A DNA stretch of 64,000 nucleotides from an uncultured Lachnospiraceae bacterium (GCA_934351835.1 CAKRJP010000007.1:1268-65267); one strand, 5' to 3'; numbered from the stretch's first letter, positions 47,598 through 63,033 are shown. Made by a program: numbers and translations. Notes: generated from the sequence alone by a model not told the origin.

Positions 47598-47726
47598 ATG
47601 TGGAGAATTTATTATATCAGACAGATTTTACGAGAAAAAAGTGGAGTTGGGGTAGTGGAAGTTATATTGATTCTGGTCGGAATATTAACCACCTATTATG
47701 AGGTGATTATAAGGTGTATAGGGTAA
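47598..47726 (+). CDS. Flp1-like pilin ORF, possibly 3'-truncated (below the ORF-track cutoff)
   Basis: My translation is MWRIYYIRQILREKSGVGVVEVILILVGILTTYYEVIIRCIG, with RBS agaggag. G-VVEVILILV matches the Flp prepilin cleavage and hydrophobic core motif. The tail after ILILV does not look pilin-like. Confidence 0.45.
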   Translation: MWRIYYIRQILREKSGVGVVEVILILVGILTTYYEVIIRCIG

Positions 47727-47777
47727 AAATGTGTGGACAAATAGAACTGGATATACAGTGAGAGGTGGAAAGTGTGT

Positions 47778-48083
47778 ATGAGGTCAAAGGGAAAAATAAC
47801 AAAAGAAATTGTATTGATTAGATACTACAATGTATTATTTTATTTGTTTTTTGAGATAGGGATAGACGATTTTAAGAAACAATGTTTAGTAAGCTGGGTG
47901 GCGTCAGCAGAAGGTATGAGAATGAAACAGATAAAGGAATGGTGCTATTTCCAGCATATTTCATTTAAGACTAAATTTATTTATAGAAAAGATTTCCCAT
48001 TTAGAGCTAATTTATGGAATTTATATTCATATGTAAGATTTAAGATTGGTTTAATGCATAGAAAAATATTTTGTTTGTTTTAA
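47778..48083 (+). CDS. Hypothetical protein (weak call)
   Basis: 101 aa from ATG 47778 after gaggtgg. The composition is aromatic-rich and no family is recognised. It could be non-coding. Confidence 0.3.
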   Translation: MRSKGKITKEIVLIRYYNVLFYLFFEIGIDDFKKQCLVSWVASAEGMRMKQIKEWCYFQHISFKTKFIYRKDFPFRANLWNLYSYVRFKIGLMHRKIFCLF

Positions 48084-48280
48084 ACTAAAAGACATTGAAA
48101 AACCACTTTTTTTATAAGATAATGATAACATGATTTATTAAGGATTAAAATTTTGGAGCATCTTCAATTAAAGTGAAAGATTCAGAGAAATCTTGTATTA
48201 TGTACTAAGTGGATATAATGTTAAAAGAAGTTGTGTGTGCAATTATTAATATAGAGTGAAGAGAGATAGGAGCTGATTTT

Positions 48281-50419
48281 GTGAATAGTAATTTGACAAT
48301 TCTTGGTGCGTTTGAATCGGGAATTAAAACCGATGTTGCAGAGCAATTTGTTCAGAAATTTTTGGAAAAATATGAGAATGTTGAAGGTGAGTTATATTTA
48401 GGATATCCAATATATATTGATGAGGTAGCGAATAGAAGAATATGTGTGGATATGGCATTAGTGTCTAAAATTGGAGTTTATATCATCAATATTTTAACAG
48501 AGCCTGTAGTGAAATATGGGGAAATTCAAGATGATATTTATGCTAAAGTAGAAACTAAATTTAAAAAGCAGAACTTTTTATTTAAAAAGAGAAAACTCAT
48601 TTTTGATTTTTATACTTTAACGTATTCTGTAACACCGATTAAAGAAGAAGAAGATTACCCATTAGCTCAAAAAGTCGATGATATAATGGATTTTATTGAG
48701 CAGACAAGAGAAGAACAAGAATATGGGGATGATTTATACAGAAAAATTTTGTCGGGACTTCAGGAAGCATATGGTATCAACACCTATAAAGAAAGAGAAA
48801 ATGTAGAAGAAGGAACCAAAGCCTATGCAATTAATCAGATGGCATCGTTAATCGAAAAATATGATAGTGCACAAATGGAAGCTATTTTATCGGATGCTAC
48901 GGGAATTCAACGTATTAGAGGGATGGCAGGTAGTGGAAAAACAATTATTTTGGCAAGAAAAGCGGTAGAATTGCATACAGCACATCCAGAATGGAATATA
49001 GTTGTCACGTATTCAACTCGATCTCTTAGAGGACAATTGGAAGCTCTAATAGCAAGGTTTTATGCCGCTAAAAATGAAGGCGCTAAATATAATCCAGAAA
49101 AACTGAAAATTATGCAGTCGTGGGGCTCAGCGACTTCTAAAGGAGTGTATTATGAAGTATGTTTGCGTCATGGCATTGCACCGTTGAATTTTTCAGAAGC
49201 CAGAGCAAAATATGGGAGAAGTGTCAATCACTTTTCGAGGTTATGCGGAGAATTATTATCATCAATTAAAAATTTCCAAAAAATGTATGATTGTATTTTG
49301 ATAGATGAAGCACAGGATTTTGATAAAAATTATTTACAATTGTGTTTGAAAATATTGGATAAGAATCAGCGGTTAGTATATGCATATGATGAGTTGCAAA
49401 AGTTGAATGAAGAGGCAATGCCAAATCCAGAGCAAATATTTGGGAAAAATATTGATCATGATACGCCATTGGTTGTTTGTTATAGAAACCAAGGAAATGC
49501 AATAGTAACTGCACATGCTATTGGCATGGGGTTATATCGAAAAGAAGGGTTGTTGCAATTACCGAGTTCTTCATCTGTGTGGGAAGCAATTGGATATGTT
49601 AGTGATACGCCTATTACAGAGGGACAAGAAGTAACTTTGTATCGGACAAAAGAAACAAGTCCAGAGTTACTAAAAACCAATCCTAATGAGGTTATTCAAT
49701 TTTTGGGATATGAAGATTATAAAAAAATGTATAAATCTCTTTTAGATATGTTGAAATCAGATTTGGAGAAGGAACAATTGATTCCAAGAGATATCATGAT
49801 TATTGATATGGATACGTTTGAATATGGTAAAAACTGTATGCGATTATCTAATATCCAGTCAGAATATAATTCAGTTGCTTGGGATGATGAATTTAATTAT
49901 GATGAGGATAAAGAAATATATAAATTTAAAATTCATACAGCAGGAGCAGCAAATCCAGAAGATTTTTTCAGAGAAGATTCGGTCGTGTACTCTAGTGTAA
50001 GAAGAGCAAAAGGTAATGAAACATATATGGTATATATTGTAAATGCTCAAAAATGTGTTAATTCTTTGCAGAGAAGGTCAGATAGAAATGCGCTGTTTAC
50101 TGCAGTTACACGCTCTAAGGGATGGGTGAAAGTTTTGGGATATGGAGAAGATATGATGGTCTTGCAAGAGGAATTTGAAGAAATAAAGAGACAAGATTTT
50201 AAACTCCATTTTGATAAATACCCAACTAAAGAAGAACAAAAGCAAATTTTCTTGAATAACAAAGATGTAGCGGCGAAAGACATACAGACTATCGATAAAA
50301 CAAAAAATTTAATTGGAAAGCTTACAGGAAATGGAAACGTTACAAAAATCCAATTAATGCAAGAGTTATTTGGAATGAGTAAAGAGGAATTGGCTAAACT
50401 CCTTGAAGGAGGCGAATAA
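48281..50419 (+). CDS. SF1 (UvrD/AAA_19-type) helicase with a NERD-like N-terminal region
   Basis: 712 aa with a GTG start after aggag. Walker A is GMAGSGKT and Walker B is ILIDEAQDF. The late motifs are VRRAKGNETYMVYIV and LFTAVTRSKGWVKVLG. The N-terminal CVDMALVSKIGVYIINIL resembles the NERD core strand pair. Confidence 0.8.
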   Translation: MNSNLTILGAFESGIKTDVAEQFVQKFLEKYENVEGELYLGYPIYIDEVANRRICVDMALVSKIGVYIINILTEPVVKYGEIQDDIYAKVETKFKKQNFLFKKRKLIFDFYTLTYSVTPIKEEEDYPLAQKVDDIMDFIEQTREEQEYGDDLYRKILSGLQEAYGINTYKERENVEEGTKAYAINQMASLIEKYDSAQMEAILSDATGIQRIRGMAGSGKTIILARKAVELHTAHPEWNIVVTYSTRSLRGQLEALIARFYAAKNEGAKYNPEKLKIMQSWGSATSKGVYYEVCLRHGIAPLNFSEARAKYGRSVNHFSRLCGELLSSIKNFQKMYDCILIDEAQDFDKNYLQLCLKILDKNQRLVYAYDELQKLNEEAMPNPEQIFGKNIDHDTPLVVCYRNQGNAIVTAHAIGMGLYRKEGLLQLPSSSSVWEAIGYVSDTPITEGQEVTLYRTKETSPELLKTNPNEVIQFLGYEDYKKMYKSLLDMLKSDLEKEQLIPRDIMIIDMDTFEYGKNCMRLSNIQSEYNSVAWDDEFNYDEDKEIYKFKIHTAGAANPEDFFREDSVVYSSVRRAKGNETYMVYIVNAQKCVNSLQRRSDRNALFTAVTRSKGWVKVLGYGEDMMVLQEEFEEIKRQDFKLHFDKYPTKEEQKQIFLNNKDVAAKDIQTIDKTKNLIGKLTGNGNVTKIQLMQELFGMSKEELAKLLEGGE

Positions 50420-50420
50420 T

Positions 50421-51077
50421 ATGCCTGCATCTAAGATGGTAAAGCATATCTTAGATGATATGAGAAAAACAAATGAAGAATTATGGAAAAAGGGAATTGT
50501 GCGTGATGAAAAAGGCGCATCTGTAAAGCAAACAGGAAATGATTCTTGGGAAATATCTTTTTCGGGGAAAAATGATAGTGGAAGCATTATATTGGATAAG
50601 CACATAACAGCAACAAGAATTATAGATGTATTACTTGAAAACCTACAGTATACATTGCTACTATATGATAAAGGTATAATTCAAGCAGAATATGAGATTT
50701 CAAATGATAAAATTGTAAAAGAACGATTAGTTTTTATGAAGAAGCATAATAAAATTTGGGACTTCAAAGAAATTGAAGCATGTGAAGCAGAAGATAAAGA
50801 TTGGTTTATGGAGGAAGAAGGAGTCCCGATTATGCTTAGAATTGATTATGCTCCAGATGATCATATTGAAGGCGAACATGCAGCCACTCATTTAACATTA
50901 TCCAATCATGAATGCTGTAGAATTCCAATTAAAGGAATTGTGACGTTCTCCGAATTTGTTAGGTTTGTTTTATTACATTTTTATGATATAAAACTGGATA
51001 AAGCGGTTTTCCGTTTTGATGAAGAAGATACGATTACTGGTTTGGAAAAACAAATGATGCATATAAATTGGATTTGA
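50421..51077 (+). CDS. Unrecognised 218-aa protein coupled to the helicase
   Basis: ATG 50421 follows gaaggagg by 8 nt and begins 1 nt after the helicase stop. The His/Cys-rich block DDHIEGEHAATHLTLSNHECCRIP is notable. No family recognised by eye. Confidence 0.7.
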   Translation: MPASKMVKHILDDMRKTNEELWKKGIVRDEKGASVKQTGNDSWEISFSGKNDSGSIILDKHITATRIIDVLLENLQYTLLLYDKGIIQAEYEISNDKIVKERLVFMKKHNKIWDFKEIEACEAEDKDWFMEEEGVPIMLRIDYAPDDHIEGEHAATHLTLSNHECCRIPIKGIVTFSEFVRFVLLHFYDIKLDKAVFRFDEEDTITGLEKQMMHINWI

Positions 51078-51374
51078 TTATGGCTCTTGTGATAGGAATT
51101 ACATAGCGATTAAAACAAAGAGATATTTCTGTATGATGAGATATCTTTTTTATAAAAGATTTCGGAAATTTAGATGGAGGATTTAGGGGTTGGTAAACGC
51201 CAAACCATTCGTCTCGTAATCTGCGTAAATGCTAGTTTTTCCTATATTTTCAAGTAGTTTTCAACTTTTATTGAGTTGCACTTATTTCTGGAAATTTATA
51301 CTAATCTGCTGGTTTCAAATTTTGCATAATTTGTAAATGAAAATTTTAATGGTATCTGGTATCAATGCTAGACT

Positions 51375-52094
51375 TTACTTACGCTTATGCGAGATATTTA
51401 TCTTTTTATTTTTTAGTATAGATAATATAAATGAAAAAATGAATAAGAATATTACTTCTCCCGTTGCTATTCCATAAATAATTTGATTTACAATATCATT
51501 GTATGATGAAAAGCAAAGAAAGAGCAAAATGACAAAAACAAAGCTACTTTCTAAAATCATTTTGACATCTTTTGATGTCTTTTTAACACTATCGATATAT
51601 TCCGTTAGTAATACTATAAGAGATTTATTTTTTAAAAAAGTTTCTACAGAAATATACGAACCAATCAAAACACTTATAGCAATACTGGAAACAGTTAGGT
51701 ATTCACTTGAACCACATTGTATAGATATGATTCCTCCCGATATTGCAACACAAATATAAGATAAAATTATCGCCCAATGCTTATCGCTCACTTTTAATTC
51801 GTTTTTGGGACATATCTTTTCAAAAAATATATTAACTGTCCAAATACTAAACAACAAGTATAATGCACTGAATATGGAACTAAGTTCACTACATACATCA
51901 TTTAATATCAAAGAAATAAAGATATATGCAAATGAAGACATAAACATAAAAAAACAATATAGTATTTTTTGTGTCGGTGCTTTGATACAATTAATCAGTC
52001 TATAGACTATTTTTACCTTTTGAAAAACGCAATAGGTAAATAAAAACATTATAAATATTGTTATTATCAGTGATATGAAATAATATTTATTCAT
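51375..52094 (-). CDS. Polytopic membrane protein, unknown family
   Basis: 239 aa from ATG 52094 (MNKYYF, RBS ggagtg). There are about 6 hydrophobic helices and no sizeable soluble domain. The gene is very AT-rich. Confidence 0.65.
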   Translation of the reverse strand: MNKYYFISLIITIFIMFLFTYCVFQKVKIVYRLINCIKAPTQKILYCFFMFMSSFAYIFISLILNDVCSELSSIFSALYLLFSIWTVNIFFEKICPKNELKVSDKHWAIILSYICVAISGGIISIQCGSSEYLTVSSIAISVLIGSYISVETFLKNKSLIVLLTEYIDSVKKTSKDVKMILESSFVFVILLFLCFSSYNDIVNQIIYGIATGEVIFLFIFSFILSILKNKKINISHKRK

Positions 52095-52423
52095 ATATCT
52101 ACACTCCATTCGCTATAAATACTATCTGAATACGGTAACAACTATAAAGTAAGTTTTTAAATGATCAATATGGATAAGTATATCATTTTCGATTTACAAC
52201 TACCATAAAAATCCTTATAAATAGCTTATTTTTTTCGGTGTTCTCTGCAACGTATAGCTTTGTGAATTGTCTGCGTTTTGGTTGCTTTTATTCTTCAACA
52301 CAACATCTTCTTGCCTTTACACACCATTCACCATCTGCATCCATATAGAGTTGTTTCTAATAGTTTTTTAGAATATCTCAGAAATGTGCAGATTAGGTCT
52401 AGGCGAGTGGTTTGTCGTTTATA

Positions 52424-52452
52424 TTGTTTGGGAGCTTAAAACATAGTATAAT
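52424..52452 (+). promoter_or_regulatory. sigma-A promoter (TTGTTT-17-TATAAT)
   Basis: ttgttt at 52424-52429 and tataat at 52447-52452, about 35 nt upstream of ATG 52487. Confidence 0.55.
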
Positions 52453-52486
52453 TTTTAGAAATATTTTAGAAAGGAGAGAAATTTAT

Positions 52487-53218
52487 ATGGAACACAAATT
52501 TAGAAAAGTAGTGGTAATATTTATTGATATATTAGGTTCTCAAAGTAGGAGTAACTTTGAAGAATGGTATAATATTATGAGCATTTTTAATAAAATGGTG
52601 GAACGAGAAAAAGCCTTAGACGAAACTCATACAAGGGTTATTTATAAGAGAGAAATTCATGTTTTTTCTGATTGCGCATATATCATTTATGATTATAAAG
52701 ATGGCATTGAAGAGAGTCGAAAAAATATGTATGAGTTAATGGGAATTGCTTGTTATAACACTGAAAAAGTATTGTATGAATTTTTGAAAAATGAATTTAT
52801 TGCTCGTGGTGCAATTACATATGGTGAGATGTTTTATGATACTGAAAAGAATATTTGGTTTGGACCGGCAATGAATCGGGCTTATTTTTTGGAATCTAAG
52901 AAAGCAAGTGTGCCAAGAGTAATTATAGATCCGGAATATGCGGAAGAATTGTATGCATTTAACGAAAAAAAATATCGAGGAGATAGTATATTAAAGATGG
53001 ATAATGGTGAAATTCTTCTTCGTGATATAGATGGGAGCATATATTTGAACTATTTAAATACTGTGAAGCAAGGAATAAATCGGGTGGAAAGCGAATGGGT
53101 TATAGAAAAAGCACTTGAATTGTGTAACAGGGAAAGAGCTATAAAGAGAGATTCAGAAGAACTACAGCAATCTATTCAGAAAAAGTATGATTGGTTAGAA
53201 AGATATTTATTACAATAA
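52487..53218 (+). CDS. Class III nucleotidyl-cyclase-like (palm domain) protein with an uncharacterised C-terminal extension
   Basis: 243 aa with RBS aaaggagag. Four ordered motifs are present: VVVIFIDILGSQS, HVFSDCAYIIY, ARGAITYGEMFY and WFGPAMNRAYFLES. They parallel the FxDIxGF(T/S), GD, RxGIHxG and GxxVNxAxRLES motifs of class III cyclases. Confidence 0.7.
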   Translation: MEHKFRKVVVIFIDILGSQSRSNFEEWYNIMSIFNKMVEREKALDETHTRVIYKREIHVFSDCAYIIYDYKDGIEESRKNMYELMGIACYNTEKVLYEFLKNEFIARGAITYGEMFYDTEKNIWFGPAMNRAYFLESKKASVPRVIIDPEYAEELYAFNEKKYRGDSILKMDNGEILLRDIDGSIYLNYLNTVKQGINRVESEWVIEKALELCNRERAIKRDSEELQQSIQKKYDWLERYLLQ

Positions 53219-53244
53219 ATAAGAAAGAGAAAGAATCACAAAGG

Positions 53245-53273
53245 CAGACTTCGATTAAGAGGTCTGTTTTTTT
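53245..53273 (+). terminator. Rho-independent terminator
   Basis: Arms cagacttc and gaggtctg form an 8-bp stem including one G-U pair, followed by T7. Confidence 0.6.
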
Positions 53274-53298
53274 CTGGTCTTTTGGGAGGTGATAAGAG

Positions 53299-53631
53299 GT
53301 GGAAGTAAGTATTTATGAACTCTTGGCGGCAGCAAGAGAATCGGCTAAATCCGATTATATAAAGGGGGACAGCATTTTGTGTGAGAAGAGATTTCATCCA
53401 GATATCCATTACATGGTGGAAATGGAGCTGTTAGAAAATGATAACCGGCTGGGAGAAAAGGAAAATTATATACGGAAGTTTCTGACAGAACCGGAGTATT
53501 TTCCCATTTTACAAAAGCAGGAAAAACATCTCATAAAAATAAAAAGACAGGCAATTGTTCAAAAAGGAAACTTGCGATATATCCCTCCTCCGGACAGGCT
53601 GGACAGCCGCCGGGAGAGGGATATTTTATAA
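53299..53631 (+). CDS. Hypothetical protein
   Basis: 110 aa with a GTG start. No family recognised. Confidence 0.35.
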   Translation: MEVSIYELLAAARESAKSDYIKGDSILCEKRFHPDIHYMVEMELLENDNRLGEKENYIRKFLTEPEYFPILQKQEKHLIKIKRQAIVQKGNLRYIPPPDRLDSRRERDIL

Positions 53632-53808
53632 CCGGCTGGGAAGAAATAGTAGTGTTCCTCTGGCGATAGTGGTATAAAAAAGCCAGATTTTCCGCAGGTT
53701 TTGGGACGCTGGAACATAGAAAAGTGTTCACGAATGACACTTTTGCAACAATCCGTTGCAGCAGTGAAAACATTTTTGGATTTACGTTAAACAGAAAAAT
53801 GAAAGGAT

Positions 53809-54726
53809 GTGATTGCGATAATCATAGGAATTGATCATGGCTATTATGCCATTAAAACAAGACAAGTGTCTTTCCCAAGTGGAATTATTGGGTATGATTA
53901 CGAGCCGTATACCATGCAGAATGTTCTGCAGTATCAGGGAAAGTATTATGTCTGTGGTACAGGGAGACAGACACTGGTAAAAAATAAAACGTCCAATGAT
54001 AATTATTATCTGCTGACGTTGGCAGCCATTGCGGAAGAAATCAAGCATCGGAAAGCGGAACGAAAGACAGAGGTAATTCTGGCTGTCGGACTTCCGCTTT
54101 CAAGTTTTGGAAGAGAGAAACATGGATTCAGGGAGTATCTGTTGCGGAAAGAGCAGCCAGTGCGATTTTTATATGAAAGTGAATTATATGAGATAACAAT
54201 AAAAGATGTGAAACTGTTCCCACAGGGATACTCTGCGCTTGCTTTGCATCCAGAGTACCTGAAGAATGAACCATCTGTTCTGCTTGTTGATATTGGTGGC
54301 TGGACCGTTGACCTTATGAGGCTGGACAATGCTGTTCCGAATGCAGCAACGTGCAGGAGTCTGGAACTGGGTGTGATCCGGTGTATTGACGAGACGGCAG
54401 AACAGGTGCGGAGAAATACCGGACTGTCTGTAACGGAAACACAGATCGAACGTGTGCTTCGTGGGGAAACCTGCAGCATGGCAGAAGATGCAAGAGTTGT
54501 CATACAGGAAAACGGACGGAAATACATCGAAAGAATCCTGTCTGCGGTAACGGAATCCGGGTTTGATCTCAGGGCAGTGCCGAGCGTATTTATGGGTGGA
54601 GGTTCTGCGATTTTAAAACGCCACGTGACCGCACAGGATGCGATTTGCCGCCCTGTTTTTATCGAGGACGTCCATGCGAACGCTGCCGGGTATGAACGGA
54701 TTGTAGAGCAGATGTGGGCGAAATGA
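53809..54726 (+). CDS. parM: ParM/StbA family actin-like segregation ATPase
   Basis: The phosphate-1 motif is IIGIDHGYYAIKT and the phosphate-2 motif is LLVDIGGWTVDL. The adenosine motif is FMGGGSA. Confidence 0.8.
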   Translation: MIAIIIGIDHGYYAIKTRQVSFPSGIIGYDYEPYTMQNVLQYQGKYYVCGTGRQTLVKNKTSNDNYYLLTLAAIAEEIKHRKAERKTEVILAVGLPLSSFGREKHGFREYLLRKEQPVRFLYESELYEITIKDVKLFPQGYSALALHPEYLKNEPSVLLVDIGGWTVDLMRLDNAVPNAATCRSLELGVIRCIDETAEQVRRNTGLSVTETQIERVLRGETCSMAEDARVVIQENGRKYIERILSAVTESGFDLRAVPSVFMGGGSAILKRHVTAQDAICRPVFIEDVHANAAGYERIVEQMWAK

Positions 54727-55013
54727 CACGTCCGGTATATTCGTTCCGTCCAAACCTGAAAAATCCGGAACACCAGAAAGCATGGGAGAAATTCCAGAGT
54801 GTTCCGGAAGGACAGAAAAACCAGTACCTTGTTCAGGCGATTCTGGAAAAAGAGGACCGGAAGTGGATGGAAGAGGTCATCCAAAAGACGATCAAAGAAA
54901 GTGTTCGGGAATTAAACATTTGTGGCGGTGCGGAACAAAGTGGAACAAATCCACTGGCTGAGGATATCCCGGATCAGATGATGGATTTCCTATCTCAGAT
55001 GGAAAATATGTAA
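54723..55013 (+). CDS. Small protein downstream of parM (possible ParR-like adaptor)
   Basis: The ATG overlaps the parM stop (ATGA). The N-terminal segment YSFRPNLKNPEHQKAWEKFQ...YLVQAIL is ribbon-helix-helix-like. Confidence 0.45.
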   Translation: MTRPVYSFRPNLKNPEHQKAWEKFQSVPEGQKNQYLVQAILEKEDRKWMEEVIQKTIKESVRELNICGGAEQSGTNPLAEDIPDQMMDFLSQMENM

Positions 55014-55167
55014 AGGGGGTGAGGCCTATGATTGTGCGATACATACATTGTTGGATCTGCTAGGGGCAGGAGCAAAACAGCATCGATATCTTTGGTAGGT
55101 ATCGTGAATAGCTTTCCATGCATCTTTGGAGTATGTTGTGTGTAGCGAAACGGAAAGGAGAAACGCT

Positions 55168-55686
55168 ATGACAGAGATGAAGAACATATGCGGAAAGATC
55201 CCGAAGGACTTACACGAAAAAGTAAGAGAAGAGATTGAACTGACAGAAAGCAGCACACAGAAATTTATACAGCAGGTCATCGAAGAACATTTTGAAAGAC
55301 TTGCAGGAAAAGGAGAAATGAGCATGGGAACAGCAAGAACAATCGCAGTACAGGTATCAGAGGAATTATTCCAGAGATTAAAAACAGTCATCGCAAAAAA
55401 AGGCATGAAACAGAAAGACTTCTTAATTCAGATCATCGAAGAGGCACTGGAAAAGGCAGAGACCGAATGGCAGAACAAAGACAGCATGGAAGAAACGGAA
55501 CCTGTAACCGGAGAATCTGGAACAGAAGAGACTCAACCGGACGAGGAAACCGAACCGGAAGGAGAAAACGAACCGAGCGAGGAAAGCGAACCGGACGAGG
55601 AAGCCGAACTGAAAGAAGAAAGTGAACCGGACGAGGAAACTCAACCGGAAGAAGAAACCAAAGCAGAAGAACCAACAGAATGGTAA
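55168..55686 (+). CDS. Tandem RHH-like protein with a poly-acidic repeat tail
   Basis: ATG 55168 follows aaaggaga. There are two RHH-like units (IPKDLHEKVREEIE...FIQQVIEEH and VSEELFQRLKTVIA...FLIQIIEEA). About 65 aa of (S/T)EP(D/E)EE repeats follow. Confidence 0.55.
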   Translation: MTEMKNICGKIPKDLHEKVREEIELTESSTQKFIQQVIEEHFERLAGKGEMSMGTARTIAVQVSEELFQRLKTVIAKKGMKQKDFLIQIIEEALEKAETEWQNKDSMEETEPVTGESGTEETQPDEETEPEGENEPSEESEPDEEAELKEESEPDEETQPEEETKAEEPTEW

Positions 55687-57053
55687 CAAACAGACACAGA
55701 GAAACCAACAGGCGGTATGAGAAAAATCATGCCGCCTGTTTTTATCAGCAAAGGAGGTTGATAACCGCAACCATTCAATTTTTTGATCTCTTTAGCGGAA
55801 TCGGCGGATTCCGTGAAGGCTTAAGACGTGCAGGGGGATTTACCTGTGTCGGACACTGCGAGGTGGATACTTATGCGGATAAGAACTACCGATTGCTGTT
55901 TGACACAGAAGGGGAGTGGTATTGTAGTGATGCACGAACAATTGAACCAGAACGAATGCCGGATTTTGATCTGCTCTGTGCAGGATTTCCTTGCCAGGCA
56001 TTCTCTATCGCCGGAAAGCGAGAAGGATTTGCAGATGCAAGAGGAACCCTCTTTTTCGAGATTGCCCGGCTTCTTAAAGCTAAAAGACCCCAGTATTTTA
56101 TCCTTGAAAATGTTCCCGGCCTGCTTTCGCATGACAAGGGGCGGACATTTTGCACCATCCTCAGTACGCTTTCGCAACTGGGGTACCATGTCGAATGGAA
56201 AGTGCTTAACAGCAAGGATTTCGGAGTCCCCCAAGCAAGGAAACGGGTGTATATTGTCGGATATCTTGATTTCAGATGTGCCGGAAAAATATTACCTGAA
56301 CCAGAAACAAATGGAGCAGCTCTTATTCAAATCCGGGCAGGAAGTCAGGGGAAAAGAGTCTACAGTCCCAAAGGACTAAGCTGTACCCTGACATCACAGG
56401 CAGGTGGAATGGGCGGCAAGACAGGATTATATGATGTGGGTGTTCCAATTAAAGAAAATACAAAGCTCGGCTACAAACTTGCAAGAGAGGGTGACAGCAT
56501 CGATTTAGGCTATGCGAATCTCAACAGCAGGAGAGGAAGAGTCGGACATCAGATAGCACACACTCTGACTACAGGTATTCAACAGGGAACACTTCATTTC
56601 GTAGATTTGTCTCCACCACCACTGGTAACTGAAGAATGCAGAAGCCTTAATACCCGACAATGCGGAATCCACAAATACAAAGGAGAATGTTCCGGTGTAT
56701 TAAGAGAAGAAGGGGCAAGAGCAGTCCTTACACCAGCCAAAGAAAATGTCCGTCAGAACGGCAGACGTATGAAAGAACCAGAAGAACCGATGTTTACAAT
56801 TACTGCAACCGATCGTCATGGCATCTTGTATCACGGCAGAATAAGAAGGTTAGTTCCGAGGGAATGTCTGCGTCTGCAGGGTTATTACGACTGGCAGATT
56901 GATAAGATCATAGACAGCACTTCTGACGCACAGCTTTATAAACAGGCTGGAAACGGAGTAACTGTCAATGTTATCGAGGCAATTGGCAGATTGTTACAAA
57001 AGGCAGACTCCGAACTCAACACACAGGAAGTGTCTGAGAAAGGAATCTATTAG
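55680..57053 (+). CDS. dcm: DNA (cytosine-5)-methyltransferase
   Basis: Motif I is FDLFSGIGGF, motif IV is GFPCQAFS, motif VI is ENV and motif VIII is QARKRVYIVG. A long variable region follows, then motif X QAGNGV. The true start is uncertain because the tracked ATG lies about 30 codons before motif I. Confidence 0.9.
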   Translation: MVTNRHRETNRRYEKNHAACFYQQRRLITATIQFFDLFSGIGGFREGLRRAGGFTCVGHCEVDTYADKNYRLLFDTEGEWYCSDARTIEPERMPDFDLLCAGFPCQAFSIAGKREGFADARGTLFFEIARLLKAKRPQYFILENVPGLLSHDKGRTFCTILSTLSQLGYHVEWKVLNSKDFGVPQARKRVYIVGYLDFRCAGKILPEPETNGAALIQIRAGSQGKRVYSPKGLSCTLTSQAGGMGGKTGLYDVGVPIKENTKLGYKLAREGDSIDLGYANLNSRRGRVGHQIAHTLTTGIQQGTLHFVDLSPPPLVTEECRSLNTRQCGIHKYKGECSGVLREEGARAVLTPAKENVRQNGRRMKEPEEPMFTITATDRHGILYHGRIRRLVPRECLRLQGYYDWQIDKIIDSTSDAQLYKQAGNGVTVNVIEAIGRLLQKADSELNTQEVSEKGIY

Positions 57054-57055
57054 GC

Positions 57056-58012
57056 ATGATCGGTATAAAAGACCAATACTTTGGCACAGAAATCGAAATG
57101 ACAGGGATTACCAGACAACGTGCTGCAGAAGTTGTTGCTGAAATGTTTGGAACAGAAGCATATTATGACGGCACTACTTATGGAGTCTGGTCAGTGATAG
57201 ATCTGGAAGGAAAAAAGTGGAAATTTATGTCTGATGGGAGCATTTATACACAACGAAAAGTATACGGTCGAATTGTAGACGCAGGTGGAGAATATTCAAC
57301 AGAAATGGTATCTCCGAAATTATCCTATGATGAAATGGGTAAGTTACAGGAAGTAGTACGCTGTCTGCGACAGCATGGCGGTTTTGTAAATGAGTCCTGT
57401 GGTCAGCATGTTCATGTAGATGCATCGAATCATACACCGCAGAGTCTGAAAAATGCACTGACAATTATGTATGCAAAGGAAGATATCCTGTTCAAAGCAC
57501 TGAAAGTGCAGGAGAGAAGAGCAAATAGTTATTGTCAGAGGGTGCGACCGGAGGTATTAGAGAAAATCCGAAAAATACCAAATAGATCAATCACTATGGA
57601 TCGAGTAAGAAATGTCTGGTATGGAGGTAGGGATGGAAGTCATACCCATTATGATCATACCCGTTATTATGCTCTGAATCTTCATGCTGTGTTTTCCAAA
57701 GGAACTTTGGAATGGCGCTGTTTTGAAAGCACACTTCATGCAGGAAAGGTAAGAGCAAATATTACTCTGGCATTAGCCATTTCCGCACAGGCGATCAATC
57801 AGAGATCGACACAGATGAAAAAGACACTGATATCAGAAAACCCGGCATTTACATTTCGTACATTTTTATTGAGACTTGGGTTAATTGGAGACGAATATAA
57901 AAATGTCCGAAAACATCTGCTGGCAAATCTGGATGGTGATCTTGCGTGGCGATATGATAAAAGCACGTATGAGTGTCTGAAGAAAAATCAAAGGACGGAA
58001 GAAGTCAGATAG
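57056..58012 (+). CDS. Amidoligase family protein (Amidoligase_2-like, GS-fold)
   Basis: 318 aa with FGTEIEMTGI, STEMVSPKL, CGQHVHVD and LEWRCFESTLH. These match my recollection of the putative amidoligase family found on conjugative elements. Confidence 0.7.
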   Translation: MIGIKDQYFGTEIEMTGITRQRAAEVVAEMFGTEAYYDGTTYGVWSVIDLEGKKWKFMSDGSIYTQRKVYGRIVDAGGEYSTEMVSPKLSYDEMGKLQEVVRCLRQHGGFVNESCGQHVHVDASNHTPQSLKNALTIMYAKEDILFKALKVQERRANSYCQRVRPEVLEKIRKIPNRSITMDRVRNVWYGGRDGSHTHYDHTRYYALNLHAVFSKGTLEWRCFESTLHAGKVRANITLALAISAQAINQRSTQMKKTLISENPAFTFRTFLLRLGLIGDEYKNVRKHLLANLDGDLAWRYDKSTYECLKKNQRTEEVR

Positions 58013-58022
58013 AGGTGAAAAA

Positions 58023-58505
58023 ATGGAAGAAAGATATTATTTTGCTTATGGCAGCAACATGAATCTGGAGCAGATGAAGTACAGGTGTCCGGCTGCGGAA
58101 GTTGTGGAAAATGTCCGGCTTGAAAATTATCGGCTGGCATTTCGAGGAAGGGCTCCGGGCAATGGAGTAGCAACGGTGCTTCCGGAAAAAGGAAGCTGTG
58201 TGGATGGAGTCTTATGGAAAATCACAGAAGCTTGTGAAAAGAATCTGGATTTTTATGAAGGATTTCCGAATTTTTATGGGAAAGAAACCATTCAGGTAAA
58301 GGATCAGGCTGGAACTGCAAGGGAAGTATTCGTATACACGATGAACTCTCCTCATAAGGATGTTCCGGCAAGACCATCGAAATTTTATCTGGATGGAATT
58401 CTGGAAGGATGTCTGGAAAACGGTTTACCGACAAAGTCGGTGATGGATGCAGTAAAACGCACCAGAAAGGAAATGAAAAAAGCAGAAAAGCAATATACAA
58501 GATAA
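58023..58505 (+). CDS. Gamma-glutamylcyclotransferase (AIG2/GGACT-like)
   Basis: The N-terminus is YYFAYGSNMNLEQMKYRCP, with an E in the downstream YEGFP block. Confidence 0.8.
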   Translation: MEERYYFAYGSNMNLEQMKYRCPAAEVVENVRLENYRLAFRGRAPGNGVATVLPEKGSCVDGVLWKITEACEKNLDFYEGFPNFYGKETIQVKDQAGTAREVFVYTMNSPHKDVPARPSKFYLDGILEGCLENGLPTKSVMDAVKRTRKEMKKAEKQYTR

Positions 58506-58577
58506 ATGTTACCGCAGAGGGAGAGCCTTCTGCGGTATTTTACTGAACAATATATTTATTATAGGAAGGGAACATAC

Positions 58578-61500
58578 ATGAAGGTGAAGAATTTAAAAAC
58601 CAGAATCGCAGCCTTTGGACTGGCTGTCCTGATGGGCGTCAGTACCTTAAGTAGTGCCAATGCGTTTGCTGCCGAACAGACGGATGTAGGGCAGGAGGTA
58701 CAGGCATCCGAACAGGCGGTTACGAGTCAGAAAGAAAAGGCAGTTACGGCAGACGATATCACGAAAGAGATTTCGGATGAAACATTTGCAGCGGAAACCA
58801 GTATGGAAGGAATCCATTATGATGCAGAAAAAGAGGATGTTACGCTTATCAGCATCCAAGATGAAAATGGTGGGGAATACCATCCGGACAAAGCCGGAAC
58901 TTACATTGCCTCTTACATGGTTGTACCAAAGGATCAGAGTGACAGCTATACCATCAACCGAAAGGTGATCCTGACGGATACGGAAGGTCAGGCACATGCA
59001 CAGGACAATGGTGGGGAAAAGCAAAAATCAGATACAAAATCTGAAGATGATTCGGACTCGCCTGTGCAGAACTATACCGATGTAGAAATCGAGGCATCCG
59101 GGGAAGATGCATCTGCACAGGCAATCGAAGAATTCAAAGAGGACATCGAAGAGGGAAATGTCATGGTACTGTCTGCGGCTGAAAGAGCCACAAGCAGCGG
59201 TTCAACAGTCACACTGACAAAAGGAAGAACGATCTATTATCCAAGTTATCTTGGAAATTATCTTACTTGCCTGTTCACAGTCAATGGAAAGATTGCATAC
59301 TGTCTCCAGTCCCAGAAAGCATCCCCACCGAGTGGAAGTTATGTAGCACAGGTACTGGACAGCAATAAAAATTTGCAGAAAGTTCTTTATTATGGTTATG
59401 GCGGGGCAGGAGATCTGACAGGAAGTTATCTGGCTGGAAAAACGGAAGATGAAAAGTATGTGTATACACACATTGCAGCCAGCTACGCTTATGCAGGAGA
59501 AGCCGGATTTACCGGATGTAATTATAATGACCTTGTAAATGCAGGGGTTATCGCATATATCAATTATCTGTTCGGACAGGAAGAACCGCCAAAAGGTGAA
59601 CTGAGCCTTTCAAGCACAAAGCTGAATGCAGTACGGGATGGAAACTTCCAGAAAACACCAAATATCACACTGTCTGGAGATCACAGAAACTATGTGACAT
59701 TGAGTGTACCGGAAAATGTGACTGCACATAATCTTTCTAAAGGAACAAGTGTTACAAATGGAAAAATCCAGATTTATGGTGGAGATACATTCTATCTGTC
59801 TGCGGATTTATTACTGACAGGCAGTTATGCTTCCGGCAGCTTATATGGTTCTGTCGGAAAGACATGGAGAACGCTGGTGCTGACAACCGGAGATTCCAAG
59901 CAGGATATCGGTGTATTTGAAAGCGAAACAGCAGCTCCGGTAAGTTTCAGTGTACAGTGGCTTAATATGACACGCATTGAACTTATGAAAAAAGATGTCA
60001 ATACACAGAATCCGCTGTCGGGGGCAGTTTATGGTATTTATACTGATAAGAAGTGTGAAAACCTGCTTATGACAATGTCAGCAACCGGAACAGACGGAAA
60101 AGCAGTCAGTGATTATTTTGATTCCGCACTGAAAACTGTGTATGTAAAAGAGGTTACTGCTCCGACAGGGTACAAACTGAATACAGAAGTATATAAAGTA
60201 GATGTTGCAGCCGGAAAGACATTGACTGTAACAGCAACCGATGAGAGAGTCACCGGAAGGGTAAAAATCGCAAAGATCGATAAAGAAACACTTGCATTTA
60301 AAGCACAGGGGGACAGTGTTCTTCGTGGTGCGGTGTATGGTCTGTATGCCAAAGAGGACATCGTGCATCCGGATGGAACAACAGGAGTTCTGTATAAACA
60401 GGACAGCCTGATCGCGCAGGGAGTCATCGGAGATGATGGAACACTGGAGTTTTCAGAATTATACCTTGGAGAAATGTATGTAAAAGAAATCACTCCACCG
60501 GAAGGATATACACTGGATACTACAAGATATGAGGTATCCGTAACCTATGAGGGACAAGATGTTGCAGAAGTGACAAGAGACCTTACGGTAAAAGAGCAGG
60601 TAAAGAAACAGGCATTCCAGTTGATCAAAGTCAGTGAAGATGGAGAGCAGACAGAAACAGACCTGGTTGCAGGAGCAGGATTTAAGGTATATCTGATCAG
60701 CGACCTGACACAGGTGAAAAATGGGAAACTGAAACCGTCCAATGGAGAAAGCTATACAGCAAGTGATTTCAAGAATTATGACTTCAGCAAAGAGCAGGTT
60801 GCAGTTACTTATGAGAACGGAACCGCCGTACCAGTACCGGAACTGATCACGGATACCAAAGGATATGTAGTCAGCCCGGAACTGCCGTATGGAAGTTATG
60901 TTGTAGTGGAAAGCACTACCCCGGAGAATCTGAAAACCATTGATCCATTTGTTGTAAATGTGGAAAATGACAGCAGAGAACCAATGCAGTGGAGAGTATT
61001 TGATGACCGTCTGTTTGAATTCTTGTTGAAAATTGTAAAGAAGGATGCACAGACTGGAAATACAGTTTTAAAGGCTGGTGCCTCTTATAAGATTTACGAT
61101 GTGACAAATAAGAAATATGTGGAACAGGTTGTTCAGTATCCGAAGAAAGAAAAGATCAGTGTATTCGAAACAAACGAGGAAGGATATCTGATCACACCGC
61201 AGGAACTGAAGTGCTCTACCTATCGAATCGAAGAAGTGAAAGCACCGGAAGGATTTGTAAGACAGGGAAGCGAAGAGTCCCTGTATGATGGAACAACGAT
61301 TATTTCACCATTAGAGCAGACTACAAAAGGAACATATAAAGAAAATCCACAGAGCGGTATTGTAATTACAGTATCCTCAAACACTGCACATCAGATTGAT
61401 CCAGATACAGGAGCAGCGATCGTAGAGGTAGAACAGAAAAACGATGAACAGGTGGGAAGCCTGCTCCTGACGAAAAAAGGAGAACAGCTTACCGAAGTAA

Positions 61501-62948
61501 CAGGAGATTCTGTTCTGGAAAAAGTAAAGACGCTTGTGTCAAAGATAAAAAATGCGGTATCCGGGAAAGAAGAAACAGGTATCTATAAAGATTTTAAATA
61601 TGAAGAAACCGGAGTAGAAGGTGCCCAGTTTGAAGTATATGCTAAGGATACCATTTATTCACCGGATGGGGCAAAGGACGAGGAAGGAAATCTGCTTGTC
61701 CGTTACGAGAAAAATGACCTGGTAGCCAAACTGACTACAGACGAAAAGGGAATGGCAGTACTCAATAATCTGCCACTGGGAACGTATTATCTGAAAGAGG
61801 TTGTAGCAGGAGAGAATTTTGTCCTGAATACAGAACAGAAAGAATTTACCCTGACAGCAGAGGATGATACACAGGCAGTTGTTTATGAAGGCGTTACCTA
61901 TAAAAATGAAAGACAGAAAGTTTCCGTATCGGTAGAAAAGAAGGATTCTGTCACAGGAGAAAAGCTCGAAGGTGTTATTTTTGGACTGTATGCTGCGGAA
62001 GATATTCTTTCTAATCAGGGAGAGGTTCTCGTAGAGAAAGATACCCTGCTGGAAAAGAAAGCAACAGATACAAAGGGAACACTTACTTTCGACAGTGATC
62101 TTCCACATGGAAAATACTATGTCAAAGAGGAAGTCAGAAAAGCCGGATATCTTCCAAATGAAGAAGTAAGGAATGTAGACGCAACCTATGAAAATCAGAA
62201 TCTTGCAAAGATTGAACTGAACAAAGAAGTTGAGAATCAGCCGACAGAAACACGTATTACCAAAACAGATGCAACAACCGGAAATGAGCTGGAAGGAGCA
62301 AAACTGCAGGTCATTGATAAAGACGGAACTGTTTTGGAAGAGTGGATTAGTACGAAGGAAGAACATGTCATTTACGGACTGCCGGAAGGAAGTTATACCT
62401 TACATGAAGAACTGGCTCCTTATGAAGATGGTTATGTGTCTGCCAGCGATGTGACGTTTGAAGTCAAAGAAGATGGCAGTGTGACAAAGGTTGAGATGAA
62501 AGATGAATATTCCAAAGTGGAAATTTCAAAAACAGACCTAACAACCGGAAAAGAACTGGAAGGGGCAAAGCTTCAGATCATCCGAAAAGACGGAACTGTT
62601 CTGGAAGAGTGGATCACGGACGGAAAGCCACATTCTGTTGCGAAGCTTCCGGTCAATGAGGAACTTACCTTGCGTGAGATCACAGCACCGGATGGGTATG
62701 AGATTGCCGAAGATGTTACATTTACATTGAAAGATACGATGGAAGTGCAGAAAGTAGAAATGAAAGATGCCAGAACACCGGAGAAAACAACCGAAAAGAC
62801 CAATGCACCAAAAACAGGTGATAACCAGAAAGTATGGCCGTTTGTTCTGCTTGCACTGGCATCTGCCGGAACAGCTACAGGAGTGACTGTATACCGCAGA
62901 AAGAAGTCAAAAATGACAGACAACAAAGAAGAAACAGAAGAAAAATAA
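58578..62948 (+). CDS. Sortase-anchored giant surface adhesin with SpaA/Cna-B-type repeats
   Basis: ATG 58578 begins a signal peptide (MKVKNLKTRIAAFGLAVLMGVSTLSSANAFA). There are many repeats of the G(A/V)x(F/Y)x(L/V)Y...G(S/T)Y...E...AP.GY type. The C-terminus has APKTGD, a hydrophobic helix and RRKKSK. Confidence 0.85.
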   Translation: MKVKNLKTRIAAFGLAVLMGVSTLSSANAFAAEQTDVGQEVQASEQAVTSQKEKAVTADDITKEISDETFAAETSMEGIHYDAEKEDVTLISIQDENGGEYHPDKAGTYIASYMVVPKDQSDSYTINRKVILTDTEGQAHAQDNGGEKQKSDTKSEDDSDSPVQNYTDVEIEASGEDASAQAIEEFKEDIEEGNVMVLSAAERATSSGSTVTLTKGRTIYYPSYLGNYLTCLFTVNGKIAYCLQSQKASPPSGSYVAQVLDSNKNLQKVLYYGYGGAGDLTGSYLAGKTEDEKYVYTHIAASYAYAGEAGFTGCNYNDLVNAGVIAYINYLFGQEEPPKGELSLSSTKLNAVRDGNFQKTPNITLSGDHRNYVTLSVPENVTAHNLSKGTSVTNGKIQIYGGDTFYLSADLLLTGSYASGSLYGSVGKTWRTLVLTTGDSKQDIGVFESETAAPVSFSVQWLNMTRIELMKKDVNTQNPLSGAVYGIYTDKKCENLLMTMSATGTDGKAVSDYFDSALKTVYVKEVTAPTGYKLNTEVYKVDVAAGKTLTVTATDERVTGRVKIAKIDKETLAFKAQGDSVLRGAVYGLYAKEDIVHPDGTTGVLYKQDSLIAQGVIGDDGTLEFSELYLGEMYVKEITPPEGYTLDTTRYEVSVTYEGQDVAEVTRDLTVKEQVKKQAFQLIKVSEDGEQTETDLVAGAGFKVYLISDLTQVKNGKLKPSNGESYTASDFKNYDFSKEQVAVTYENGTAVPVPELITDTKGYVVSPELPYGSYVVVESTTPENLKTIDPFVVNVENDSREPMQWRVFDDRLFEFLLKIVKKDAQTGNTVLKAGASYKIYDVTNKKYVEQVVQYPKKEKISVFETNEEGYLITPQELKCSTYRIEEVKAPEGFVRQGSEESLYDGTTIISPLEQTTKGTYKENPQSGIVITVSSNTAHQIDPDTGAAIVEVEQKNDEQVGSLLLTKKGEQLTEVTGDSVLEKVKTLVSKIKNAVSGKEETGIYKDFKYEETGVEGAQFEVYAKDTIYSPDGAKDEEGNLLVRYEKNDLVAKLTTDEKGMAVLNNLPLGTYYLKEVVAGENFVLNTEQKEFTLTAEDDTQAVVYEGVTYKNERQKVSVSVEKKDSVTGEKLEGVIFGLYAAEDILSNQGEVLVEKDTLLEKKATDTKGTLTFDSDLPHGKYYVKEEVRKAGYLPNEEVRNVDATYENQNLAKIELNKEVENQPTETRITKTDATTGNELEGAKLQVIDKDGTVLEEWISTKEEHVIYGLPEGSYTLHEELAPYEDGYVSASDVTFEVKEDGSVTKVEMKDEYSKVEISKTDLTTGKELEGAKLQIIRKDGTVLEEWITDGKPHSVAKLPVNEELTLREITAPDGYEIAEDVTFTLKDTMEVQKVEMKDARTPEKTTEKTNAPKTGDNQKVWPFVLLALASAGTATGVTVYRRKKSKMTDNKEETEEK

Positions 62949-63033
62949 AATAAAAATTACAGGATAAACCAATCTGACAGGGCAGGAGATGTGCATAAAG
63001 CAGCTTCTGTCCTGTCTGTATATAAGGAGAAGA

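Follow-up and report, generated by a model that had tools for sequence, protein, structure and literature searches.

The window analysed here, 64,000 nucleotides from an uncultured Lachnospiraceae bacterium, contains an AT-rich stretch between a Tad pilus operon and a ParM-type module. A first-pass annotation described it as a 101-aa ORF, a helicase with a coupled partner, a convergent membrane protein and a divergent cyclase-like gene, and this gene content stands. The features of the region are listed below in window positions, except where contig C7 is named.

47598..47726, plus strand: disrupted flp (Flp pilin), with chromosomal codons up to 47679 and a 42-codon ORF that ends in element DNA
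47674..47679, no strand: attL, the left copy of the 6-bp crossover core TGGTCG (base-level junctions)
47680..48083, plus strand: conserved left end of an ICE, including a 101-aa backbone gene at 47778-48083 (nucleotide conservation)
48281..50419, plus strand: SF1 helicase of Rst_HelicaseDUF2290, 712 aa (PADLOC, Pfam UvrD_C_2)
50421..51077, plus strand: DUF2290 partner, 218 aa (Pfam PF10053, PADLOC DUF2290)
51117..51153, plus strand: intrinsic-terminator-like hairpin, a 13-bp AT-rich stem and T run, closing the helicase-DUF2290 operon (RNAfold)
51375..52094, minus strand: orphan polytopic membrane protein of ~7 TM segments, 239 aa, its start a Met preceded by a GGAG ribosome-binding site
52095..52350, minus strand: conserved region of ~240 nt upstream of the membrane-protein gene, which travels with the gene (DNA homology)
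52487..53218, plus strand: stand-alone protein of 243 aa with a class III nucleotidyl-cyclase fold and a helical domain at the C terminus (AF2, Foldseek)
53240..53275, plus strand: terminator-like hairpin, a 13-bp stem with a T7 run, at the boundary of cargo and backbone (RNA folding)
53299..64000, plus strand: the part of the ICE backbone inside the window (DUF5720, ParM-like, Dcm, amidoligase, GGACT, TED/SpaA adhesin, MetK)
C7:109130-109135, equivalent to window position 107863-107868 and outside the window: right copy of the TGGTCG core (base-level junctions)

The AT-richness first judged by eye is confirmed by computation. Positions 47680-53238 have a GC content of 30.7%, where the genome mean is 41.3% (z = -4.5); of all 4693 overlapping windows of equal length across the 2.63 Mb genome (mean GC 0.413, sd 0.023), only 0.34% are as low. 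Composition is not uniform along the DNA: GC is 0.28-0.34 in 1-kb windows at 48-53 kb and ~0.38-0.48 on either side, and GC3 is below both flanks, at 0.22-0.25 in the island genes and 0.33-0.45 in Tad genes, housekeeping genes and the element backbone. Nor is the island conserved as core genome, being found neither in four same-genus species nor in four same-species empty-site contigs. These observations support a reading of the stretch as accessory DNA, foreign in composition, on the margin of an integrative element.

The Tad operon, previously called truncated, is instead split and resumes 60 kb downstream. The disrupted flp aligns with an intact flp in four same-genus genomes, where Tad DNA is joined directly to DNA equivalent to C7:109127 onward here. 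The insertion is polymorphic among strains: four same-species metagenome contigs (L083, L084, L087 and L088) match the sequence predicted for the empty site, which has one core, with 0 mismatches, and flp is intact in them with 58 codons; in one further same-species contig, L082, the site is occupied, the island is present at 100% identity and flp is called as a 42-aa gene. An ICE has inserted site-specifically, across the 6-bp TGGTCG core, into the host's Flp pilin gene and has split the pilus operon; its excision product would carry the junction ...CTAAATTTA-TGGTCG-GAATATTAAC... The backbone runs on to C7:109129 and beyond the window encodes a MobA/VirD2-type relaxase, a VirD4 coupling protein (T4CP), a VirB4-like ATPase, a CHAP cell-wall hydrolase, ArdC, tyrosine recombinases and DUF6262. 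Inside defined borders with a known empty site there are, in other words, a relaxase, a coupling protein, a VirB4-type ATPase and a recombinase, the gene set of an ICE.

Tn554-type site-specific elements carry the tyrosine recombinases TnpA/TnpB and the small TnpC. The recombination module at the far end of the ICE, with two large tyrosine recombinases and small DUF6262 proteins, may be of a similar kind, judging by the Pfam Phage_integrase/DUF6262 assignments and the short-core insertion. In both, one end carries a pair of neighbouring large tyrosine recombinases and then small proteins, and insertion is orientation- and site-specific, with a core of just 6 bp and without long direct repeats. 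Unlike Tn554, the module here serves to move a conjugative element of 60 kb, and it includes a second copy of the DUF6262 gene as well as a third recombinase.

The conserved left end has 69-98% nucleotide identity in G113, G195, G157 and G215. Its 101-aa ORF, previously called weak and counted as island content, had no match in family profile searches; it is open in all five genomes with a dN/dS of 0.09-0.14 and is a backbone gene of the element, conserved under purifying selection, and not cargo. This gene and the DUF5720 backbone gene flank the slot. We consider it quite probable that the AT-rich stretch is a variable cargo slot, 48084-53237, at the left end of an ICE of ~60.2 kb that is integrated in flp across the TGGTCG core, and that it holds three independent modules from lower-GC donors. 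The island sits within the mobile element and not beside it, as first described, with left end, island and backbone following one another between the two cores. A separate genomic island inserted next to the ICE is hardly credible, even though in composition the island is as far from the ICE backbone as it is from the chromosome: the conserved left end, 47680-48083, lies between island and chromosome; G113 has the same left end, island and backbone in one 93%-identical block that starts at the core; the empty site removes everything between both cores at once; and no recombinase, tRNA or repeat was found within the island.

Turnover of the cargo was observed among about five related elements in other genera, which have the left end and backbone in common and differ in what lies between. 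In G195 and G151, backbone homology begins at 53238 only. The G195 cargo of ~0.9 kb consists of an XRE-type protein and a 131-aa protein and has no defence signature, and that of G151 is a Tmn NTPase (PADLOC 1e-80). G215 has the helicase-DUF2290 pair at 72% identity together with 5.9 kb of other genes; its slot includes a pair formed by an 870-aa protein and a histidine phosphatase, DUF4240 and DUF6664. Hotspot 5 of the SXT/R391 ICEs, according to LeGault et al. 2021, is reportedly a variable defence hotspot. Such hotspots are also known from the P2/P4 mobile elements (PMC9122126). As in both, a fixed slot lies between conserved backbone genes, and near-identical elements differ in its content, often defence systems; unlike them, the present slot belongs to an ICE family of gut Firmicutes and is placed at the extreme attL end, as judged from the few elements compared. 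On this small set, in which one element (G195) has cargo without a defence signature, the slot is a real defence hotspot of a fairly ordinary kind. It would protect the host of the element, and hence the element, from phages or competing mobile DNA. The original proposal of a defence island or cargo at the edge of an integrative element is borne out as far as the DNA is accessory, foreign and equipped with at least one defence module, but the island is a left-end slot inside the element and not free-standing.

The defence module is the helicase and its partner, for which no recognisable named system had been noted before. The helicase matches the PADLOC profile PDLC03002 'Helicase' (E 1.5e-170, 567 bits, residues 18-696 on profile positions 12-696 of 707) and, below the cut-off of 550 bits, the NCBIfam STM2767-family helicase (2.2e-35, 122 bits); its translation has intact Walker A (GMAGSGKT), Walker B (DEAQD) and motif VI (VTRSKG) sequences. 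The partner matches Pfam PF10053 (3.7e-24, 85.7 bits against a cut-off of 25) and PADLOC PDLC02998/02999 (about 1e-27, at 9.4e-28), and its AF2 model (pLDDT 88.8) has no fold match in the PDB. The two genes are adjacent and co-oriented, an arrangement kept in G215. The ATG of the partner at 50421 lies 1 nt after the helicase stop at 50419, its GGAGG ribosome-binding site falls within the 3' end of the helicase gene, and the partner is translationally coupled to the helicase. By profile, gene order and motifs the pair is assigned to Rst_HelicaseDUF2290, with phage resistance predicted by homology.

Rst_HelicaseDUF2290 was validated against T7 (Rousset et al. 2022, Cell Host Microbe; PMC9122126) and is listed by DefenseFinder as "Rst Helicase+DUF2290" (PMC12278908); a lactococcal homologue of the pair protected against none of the tested phages (PMC11381338). 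The module resembles the original in its two-gene order, an SF1/UvrD-like helicase and then DUF2290 with full-length PADLOC matches, and in its location in a variable mobile-element hotspot, those of the original being P4-satellite, Vibrio and Bacillus prophage hotspots. It differs in being a distant Firmicute version of the validated Klebsiella/enterobacterial type, as the low STM2767-family score indicates, and in being carried by an ICE instead of a satellite or prophage. By analogy with the validated enterobacterial homologue, the ATP-driven SF1 helicase would most likely sense or process invading DNA, and DUF2290 would most likely be its effector or partner.

The membrane-protein gene is convergent with the DUF2290 partner and divergent from the cyclase-fold gene. 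Family searches with its product returned only a weak CARF_TM match at 0.004, and its homologues form only 8 clusters at 90% identity. They sit in other contexts, with other flanks and their own leader. The DNA homology in L013 begins in the upstream region, 52095..52350, and ends at the stop codon of the gene; G112 has 127 nt of the upstream region at 80% identity and no membrane-protein gene nearby. The upstream region has no Rfam match. One homologue lies beside a family-2 glycosyltransferase, which hints at a role in surface polysaccharide. The protein was also considered as a Pycsar effector, in which a cyclic-nucleotide-binding domain is fused to a TM or TIR part, and was rejected as such: it has no Pfam domain and, by its sequence, consists almost entirely of membrane helices.

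The cyclase-fold protein is modelled with a pLDDT of 92.6, and the top 50 Foldseek matches in the PDB are all adenylyl, guanylyl or uridylyl cyclases (probability 1.0, target-normalised TM-score up to 0.62). Sequence searches gave no Pfam, NCBIfam or PADLOC match (Pfam E <= 0.1), a PDB profile search was empty and PF00211 has 0 matches in the host genome (G000); the protein does match PHROG 23933 (1.9e-15). It has the fold of the PF00211 class III catalytic domain, and by inspection its FxDxxG and xSD motifs appear to occupy both metal-binding Asp positions. Of the two candidate residues, D14 is almost and D62 fully invariant; in the model they fall at the end of strand 1 and in the hairpin of strands 2-3, and they resemble, again by inspection, FVDIRGFT and IGDA of A4. 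An hhalign comparison with PF00211, only a local 36-column match at a probability of 31%, aligns GPAMNxAxxLES with GDTVNTAARLES and places N130 on the invariant catalytic Asn, which would be kept; the Arg position is F134, and R131 adjoins N130. Unlike PF00211 proteins, this one is under Pfam model detection, has the transition-state Arg replaced and a His at the base-specifying Lys position, carries an extra helical C-terminal domain of ~100 residues, and stands alone on a mobile element. The protein may not be a cyclase, because the canonical transition-state Arg is missing. As an enzyme, it would most likely turn an NTP into a nucleotide product by means of the metal-binding Asp pair and the catalytic Asn that it retains, and the helical C-terminal domain may be a sensor or regulator.

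Each unit of the island had been credited with its own regulatory signals. This holds for the strong AT-rich terminators after DUF2290 and the cyclase-fold gene and for a candidate promoter before the latter (TTGTTT-17-TATAAT, followed by an AAAGGAG ribosome-binding site, read from the sequence). A consensus scan found no general excess, with 27 promoter- or terminator-like sites against 33.9 +/- 5.3 in shuffles; being G+C-biased, it missed the hairpin that closes the helicase-DUF2290 operon.

The adjacent class III cyclase-fold enzyme and membrane protein in a defence context recall Pycsar, a pyrimidine cyclase with a TM or TIR effector, and could form a two-gene pair in which infection leads to a cyclic nucleotide that opens or activates the membrane effector. 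The genes are divergent with a 390-bp control region in common, they are co-inherited in G113 and L082, the Pycsar uridylate cyclase 8jsz appears at rank 49 of the fold search, and the weak CARF_TM match would fit. We nevertheless regard such a pair as improbable, since the genes are divergent and not an operon and their pairing is not conserved. The cyclase-fold family comprises 8850 representative clusters (50% identity) against the few of the membrane protein, found in a separate search; none of eight independent cyclase-fold contexts has a TM neighbour; the membrane-protein gene is found again, leader included, between other flanks and without a cyclase, and G059 has the cyclase-fold gene without it. 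No PycC or PycTM profile match or cNMP-binding domain was found, and 52412-53218 had no PADLOC Pycsar match, PycC included, at E <= 0.1. Their distribution indicates that the 7-TM and cyclase-fold genes are independent modules, and the modules of the island are mutually unrelated, as first proposed, by their contexts in other genomes.

The first-pass annotation suggested a DefenseFinder/PADLOC check. PADLOC matched helicase and DUF2290 and gave no defence-profile match for the membrane-protein and cyclase-fold genes, for which a defence role, suggested by their location, is not supported. In the contexts sampled the cyclase-fold gene is always solitary and nearly always on mobile elements, including three prophages at moron-type positions, ICE/IME elements and sites beside transposases. 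Its habit of travelling alone on such elements without an effector partner, its PHROG match and the TPR fusions of some family members would fit a tool by which mobile elements manipulate the host or counter its immunity, with a host nucleotide signal made or mimicked, or a decoy. We rate this as possible but doubtful: the slot in the same element family also carries bona fide defence genes (helicase with DUF2290, and Tmn), moron positions are equally typical of prophage-encoded defence, and no anti-defence family matches the protein. It is rather unlikely that, beyond helicase and DUF2290, the island is miscellaneous low-GC cargo without a role in conflict, the membrane protein serving the cell envelope and the cyclase-fold protein being an ordinary signalling enzyme. 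The glycosyltransferase neighbour, the missing defence-profile matches and the same-slot cargo of G195, a plain XRE-type regulator with a small protein, speak for it; against it, both genes have a scattered occurrence linked to mobile elements, the cyclase-fold gene turns up repeatedly in clostridial and fusobacterial prophages and ICEs, and the host genome has neither a PF00211 cyclase nor evident cNMP circuitry.

[quoted passage not shown] If this is true, the slot at the attL end in this family of flp-targeting ICEs would be a minable hotspot for further unknown systems, such as those in the G215 cargo.

The AT-rich stretch at window positions 47680-53238 is the left end of a conjugative element (ICE) of about 60.2 kb, which occupies the Tad pilus locus of its host. 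In four species of the same genus, Tad-operon DNA continues to the equivalent of window position ~47677 and gives way, within ~180 bp, to DNA matching contig C7 (CAKRJP010000007.1) of the analysed genome, G000, from position 109127 onward; the window itself corresponds to G000:C7:1268-65267. Base-level alignment placed both junctions at TGGTCG, a 6-bp crossover core inside the Flp pilin gene (flp), and the element DNA runs from window position 47680 to window-equivalent 107862. The predicted circular junction of the excised element reads ...CTAAATTTA-TGGTCG-GAATATTAAC... An apparent ~115 nt of 99% identity beyond the right junction in two compared genomes, G113 and G195, was dismissed as an averaging artefact, as the base-level alignment diverges straight after the core.

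Borders of the element and genes of the island (window coordinates unless stated)
47674-47679, left TGGTCG core, from base-level alignment
47778-48083, + strand, 101-aa ORF, open in five genomes
48281-50419, + strand, 712-aa helicase, matching PADLOC PDLC03002
50421-51077, + strand, 218-aa helicase partner (DUF2290), start one base past the helicase stop
51375-52094, - strand, ~7-TM protein, no family assignment
52487-53218, + strand, 243-aa cyclase-fold gene, PHROG 23933, fold from AlphaFold/Foldseek
C7:109130-109135, right TGGTCG core, from base-level alignment

Genes of the element, in order
First block: DUF5720, ParM-like protein, Dcm, amidoligase/GGACT pair, thioester adhesin, MetK
Second block: MobA/VirD2 relaxase, ArdC, VirD4 coupling protein, VirB4-like ATPase, CHAP/lysozyme hydrolase
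Third block: class I lantibiotic cluster
Fourth block: DinG-like helicase
Fifth block: three tyrosine recombinases, two DUF6262 genes

Downstream of the element, the Tad operon resumes with DUF5702, a prepilin peptidase and TadE. With both junctions inside flp, the operon that the first-pass annotation had called truncated is therefore split; its reading of the island as cargo carried at one edge of an integrative element is confirmed and made exact. Integration inactivates the Flp pilin gene, and a carrier therefore gives up the Tad pilus in return for conjugation and for lantibiotic and defence cargo.

The low GC content, previously judged by eye, was borne out by calculation, and all five ORFs of the island are present as first described. 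In 1-kb windows from 48 to 53 kb, GC is 0.28-0.34, against ~0.38-0.48 on either side, and the stretch 47680-53238 as a whole has a GC of 0.307 (z = -4.5 relative to 4693 genome windows of equal length, mean 0.413, sd 0.023, of which 0.34% are equally low). GC3 is 0.22-0.25 in the island genes and 0.33-0.45 in the Tad genes, the neighbouring housekeeping genes and the mobile-element backbone; the island DNA is therefore foreign both to the host and to the carrier element. The first kilobase of the window (positions 1-1000) is also AT-rich, with a GC of 0.292. Terminators of the hairpin and T-run type were found 3' of the DUF2290 gene and 3' of the 243-aa gene, and upstream of the latter the sequence shows TTGTTT-17-TATAAT together with a strong ribosome-binding site. 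A consensus promoter/terminator scan of the island gave no enrichment above shuffled sequence, and an Rfam scan returned no RNA family. A tRNA scan was empty too, which leaves the island without a tRNA target.

The distribution of the element within the species was assessed using metagenome contigs that encode an identical CpaF protein; an exact look-up with TadC returned no contigs. In one contig (L082) the island is present at 100% identity across 10.7 kb, and four others (L083, L084, L087 and L088) show the empty site as predicted, with zero mismatches, retaining an intact, 58-codon flp and flanks that are 99.8-100% identical. Within this species, carriage of the element is polymorphic. Across the 250 family genomes compared, just one other, G113, has the complete island, with 93% identity starting at the core; this identity in a different genus indicates horizontal transfer.

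Related elements with the same flp target and the same conserved left end (47680-48083) are found in G195, G215 and G157, and G113 has a related element with this target too, as judged from its right junction. The 101-aa left-end ORF is open in 5/5 genomes with a dN/dS of 0.09-0.14, which marks it as a backbone gene, and backbone homology restarts at 53238 in G195 and G151. The content between these anchors varies.

Content of the cargo slot in related elements
G000 and G113: helicase and DUF2290, TM protein, cyclase-fold protein
G215: helicase and DUF2290, 870-aa protein, histidine phosphatase, DUF4240, DUF6664
G195: an XRE-type and a 131-aa protein in about 0.9 kb
G151: Tmn/YobI NTPase (PADLOC 1e-80)
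G157: helicase, of which at least the start precedes the contig end

Variable content between conserved anchors is the pattern already known from defence hotspots on satellites, prophages and ICEs. In the G215 slot (L054:5148-10445), the 870-aa protein, without a family match, is separated by a 1-bp gap from the histidine phosphatase, and these two, with DUF4240 and DUF6664, are candidates for unknown defence genes. In G113 (L055:1-7778; G113:C17:30000-37777), the left core of the element adjoins not flp but a second element with related tyrosine recombinases (68-69% identity), an arrangement suggesting that two elements accreted in tandem at one target.

The island had been described as lacking a recognisable named system, which proved wrong. 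Its helicase matches the PADLOC "Helicase" model PDLC03002 over the whole length (E 1.5e-170), and the partner is DUF2290 (Pfam 3.7e-24; PADLOC about 1e-27). On these matches, the pair is a further member of a known anti-phage system, discovered in P4-satellite hotspots and blocking phage T7 (Rousset et al. 2022, PMC9122126), that DefenseFinder names Rst Helicase+DUF2290 (PMC12278908). The copy is distant from the enterobacterial type, scoring 122 bits against the NCBIfam STM2767-family model (cut-off 550), and a lactococcal homologue gave no protection against any phage tried (PMC11381338). Modelling of DUF2290 from 45 homologues was confident (pLDDT 88.8). A Foldseek search of this model against the PDB gave nothing significant (best E 0.06, probability 0.21), which leaves DUF2290 without a solved structural relative. 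A nuclease assignment was weighed and dropped. One module of the island is thereby placed in a validated system.

The neighbouring membrane protein and cyclase-fold protein invite a Pycsar-like reading, in which the two would work as a pair. This is unsupported by their contexts elsewhere. The cyclase-fold gene is solitary in 8/8 independent neighbourhoods, none of which has a membrane-protein neighbour, and 7/8 are on or beside mobile DNA; those listed comprise three prophages (one in Clostridium perfringens, one in Fusobacterium and one more), two ICE/IME-like elements, a site with flanking transposases and one ABC/two-component cluster. A 244-aa gene upstream in one locus (L010) was rejected as a TM-protein homologue. 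The TM gene, for its part, reappears in L013 with its own ~240 nt of upstream DNA, set there in unrelated flanking sequence (a neighbour was rejected as DUF2290), and a homologue adjoins a glycosyltransferase (L012). G059 has the cyclase-fold gene alone, and G215 has the helicase and DUF2290 without the other two. The modules are found apart, and the first-pass annotation was therefore right to call them unrelated.

Family searches gave no assignment for the ~7-TM protein, which has only eight homologue clusters; its location makes a defence role plausible. A known riboswitch was ruled out as the identity of its conserved leader by the empty Rfam scan. Upstream of the gene, a 127-nt piece (window 52222-52348) has 80% identity to G112, with no TM-protein homologue nearby there and no Rfam match, and may be a mobile promoter or regulatory element.

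The large, unnamed cyclase-fold family borne on mobile elements is the most interesting remainder of the island. The 243-aa protein has no match in Pfam, NCBIfam or PADLOC and matches PHROG 23933; sequence and profile searches against PDB sequences found nothing. The best 50 PDB matches of its AlphaFold model (pLDDT 92.6; Foldseek, probability 1.0) are exclusively class III adenylyl, guanylyl and uridylyl cyclases, and a search of a viral structure library gave just two weak giant-virus matches. D14 and D62, which by inspection appear to occupy the positions of the two metal-binding aspartates, are conserved across the family. Profile-profile alignment against genuine PF00211 domains of related genomes aligned GPAMNRAYFLES with GDTVNTAARLES; by this alignment the catalytic Asn would be retained and the transition-state Arg substituted. 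A deep search (E <= 0.001) gave 8850 representative clusters, whose members are almost all stand-alone and of 240-290 aa, a few having TPR repeats. On two contigs of one lineage only, in a mobile-element context, a DUF3800 protein is encoded immediately after the gene (L068:5841-6935, L069:973-2067). A defence role is plausible from location.

Further cargo of the same ICE lies outside the island. The class I lantibiotic cluster (G000:C7:90100-99200; L030:5109-14160), beyond the window, encodes a CAAX-type protease, LanC, an ABC transporter, LanB and a second LanC in a stretch of lower GC (about 0.35); it may be a second defence-type cargo, because a 2024 preprint ascribes anti-phage function to lanthipeptides (10.1101/2024.06.26.600839). 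Near the right end, also outside the window, an orphan DinG-like helicase (L030:16328-18295; C7:101327-103294) matches the PADLOC type IV-A CRISPR-associated DinG model (3.2e-91) and is followed downstream by a 372-aa tyrosine recombinase; a type IV-A locus was dropped, as neither a repeat array nor Csf-sized genes were found in its surroundings. The element also has two orphan DNA methyltransferases, Dcm-type and type II-like (window 55680-57053; L029:2826-3638), and an ArdC-N protein, consistent with an anti-restriction set for entering new hosts.

What began as a vague AT-rich island can be described as part of a conjugative element of gut Firmicutes that has exact borders and is polymorphic between strains; its left end behaves like an exchangeable defence slot. 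The very large, unnamed cyclase-fold family, with its mobile-element-linked distribution, is a concrete candidate for testing.
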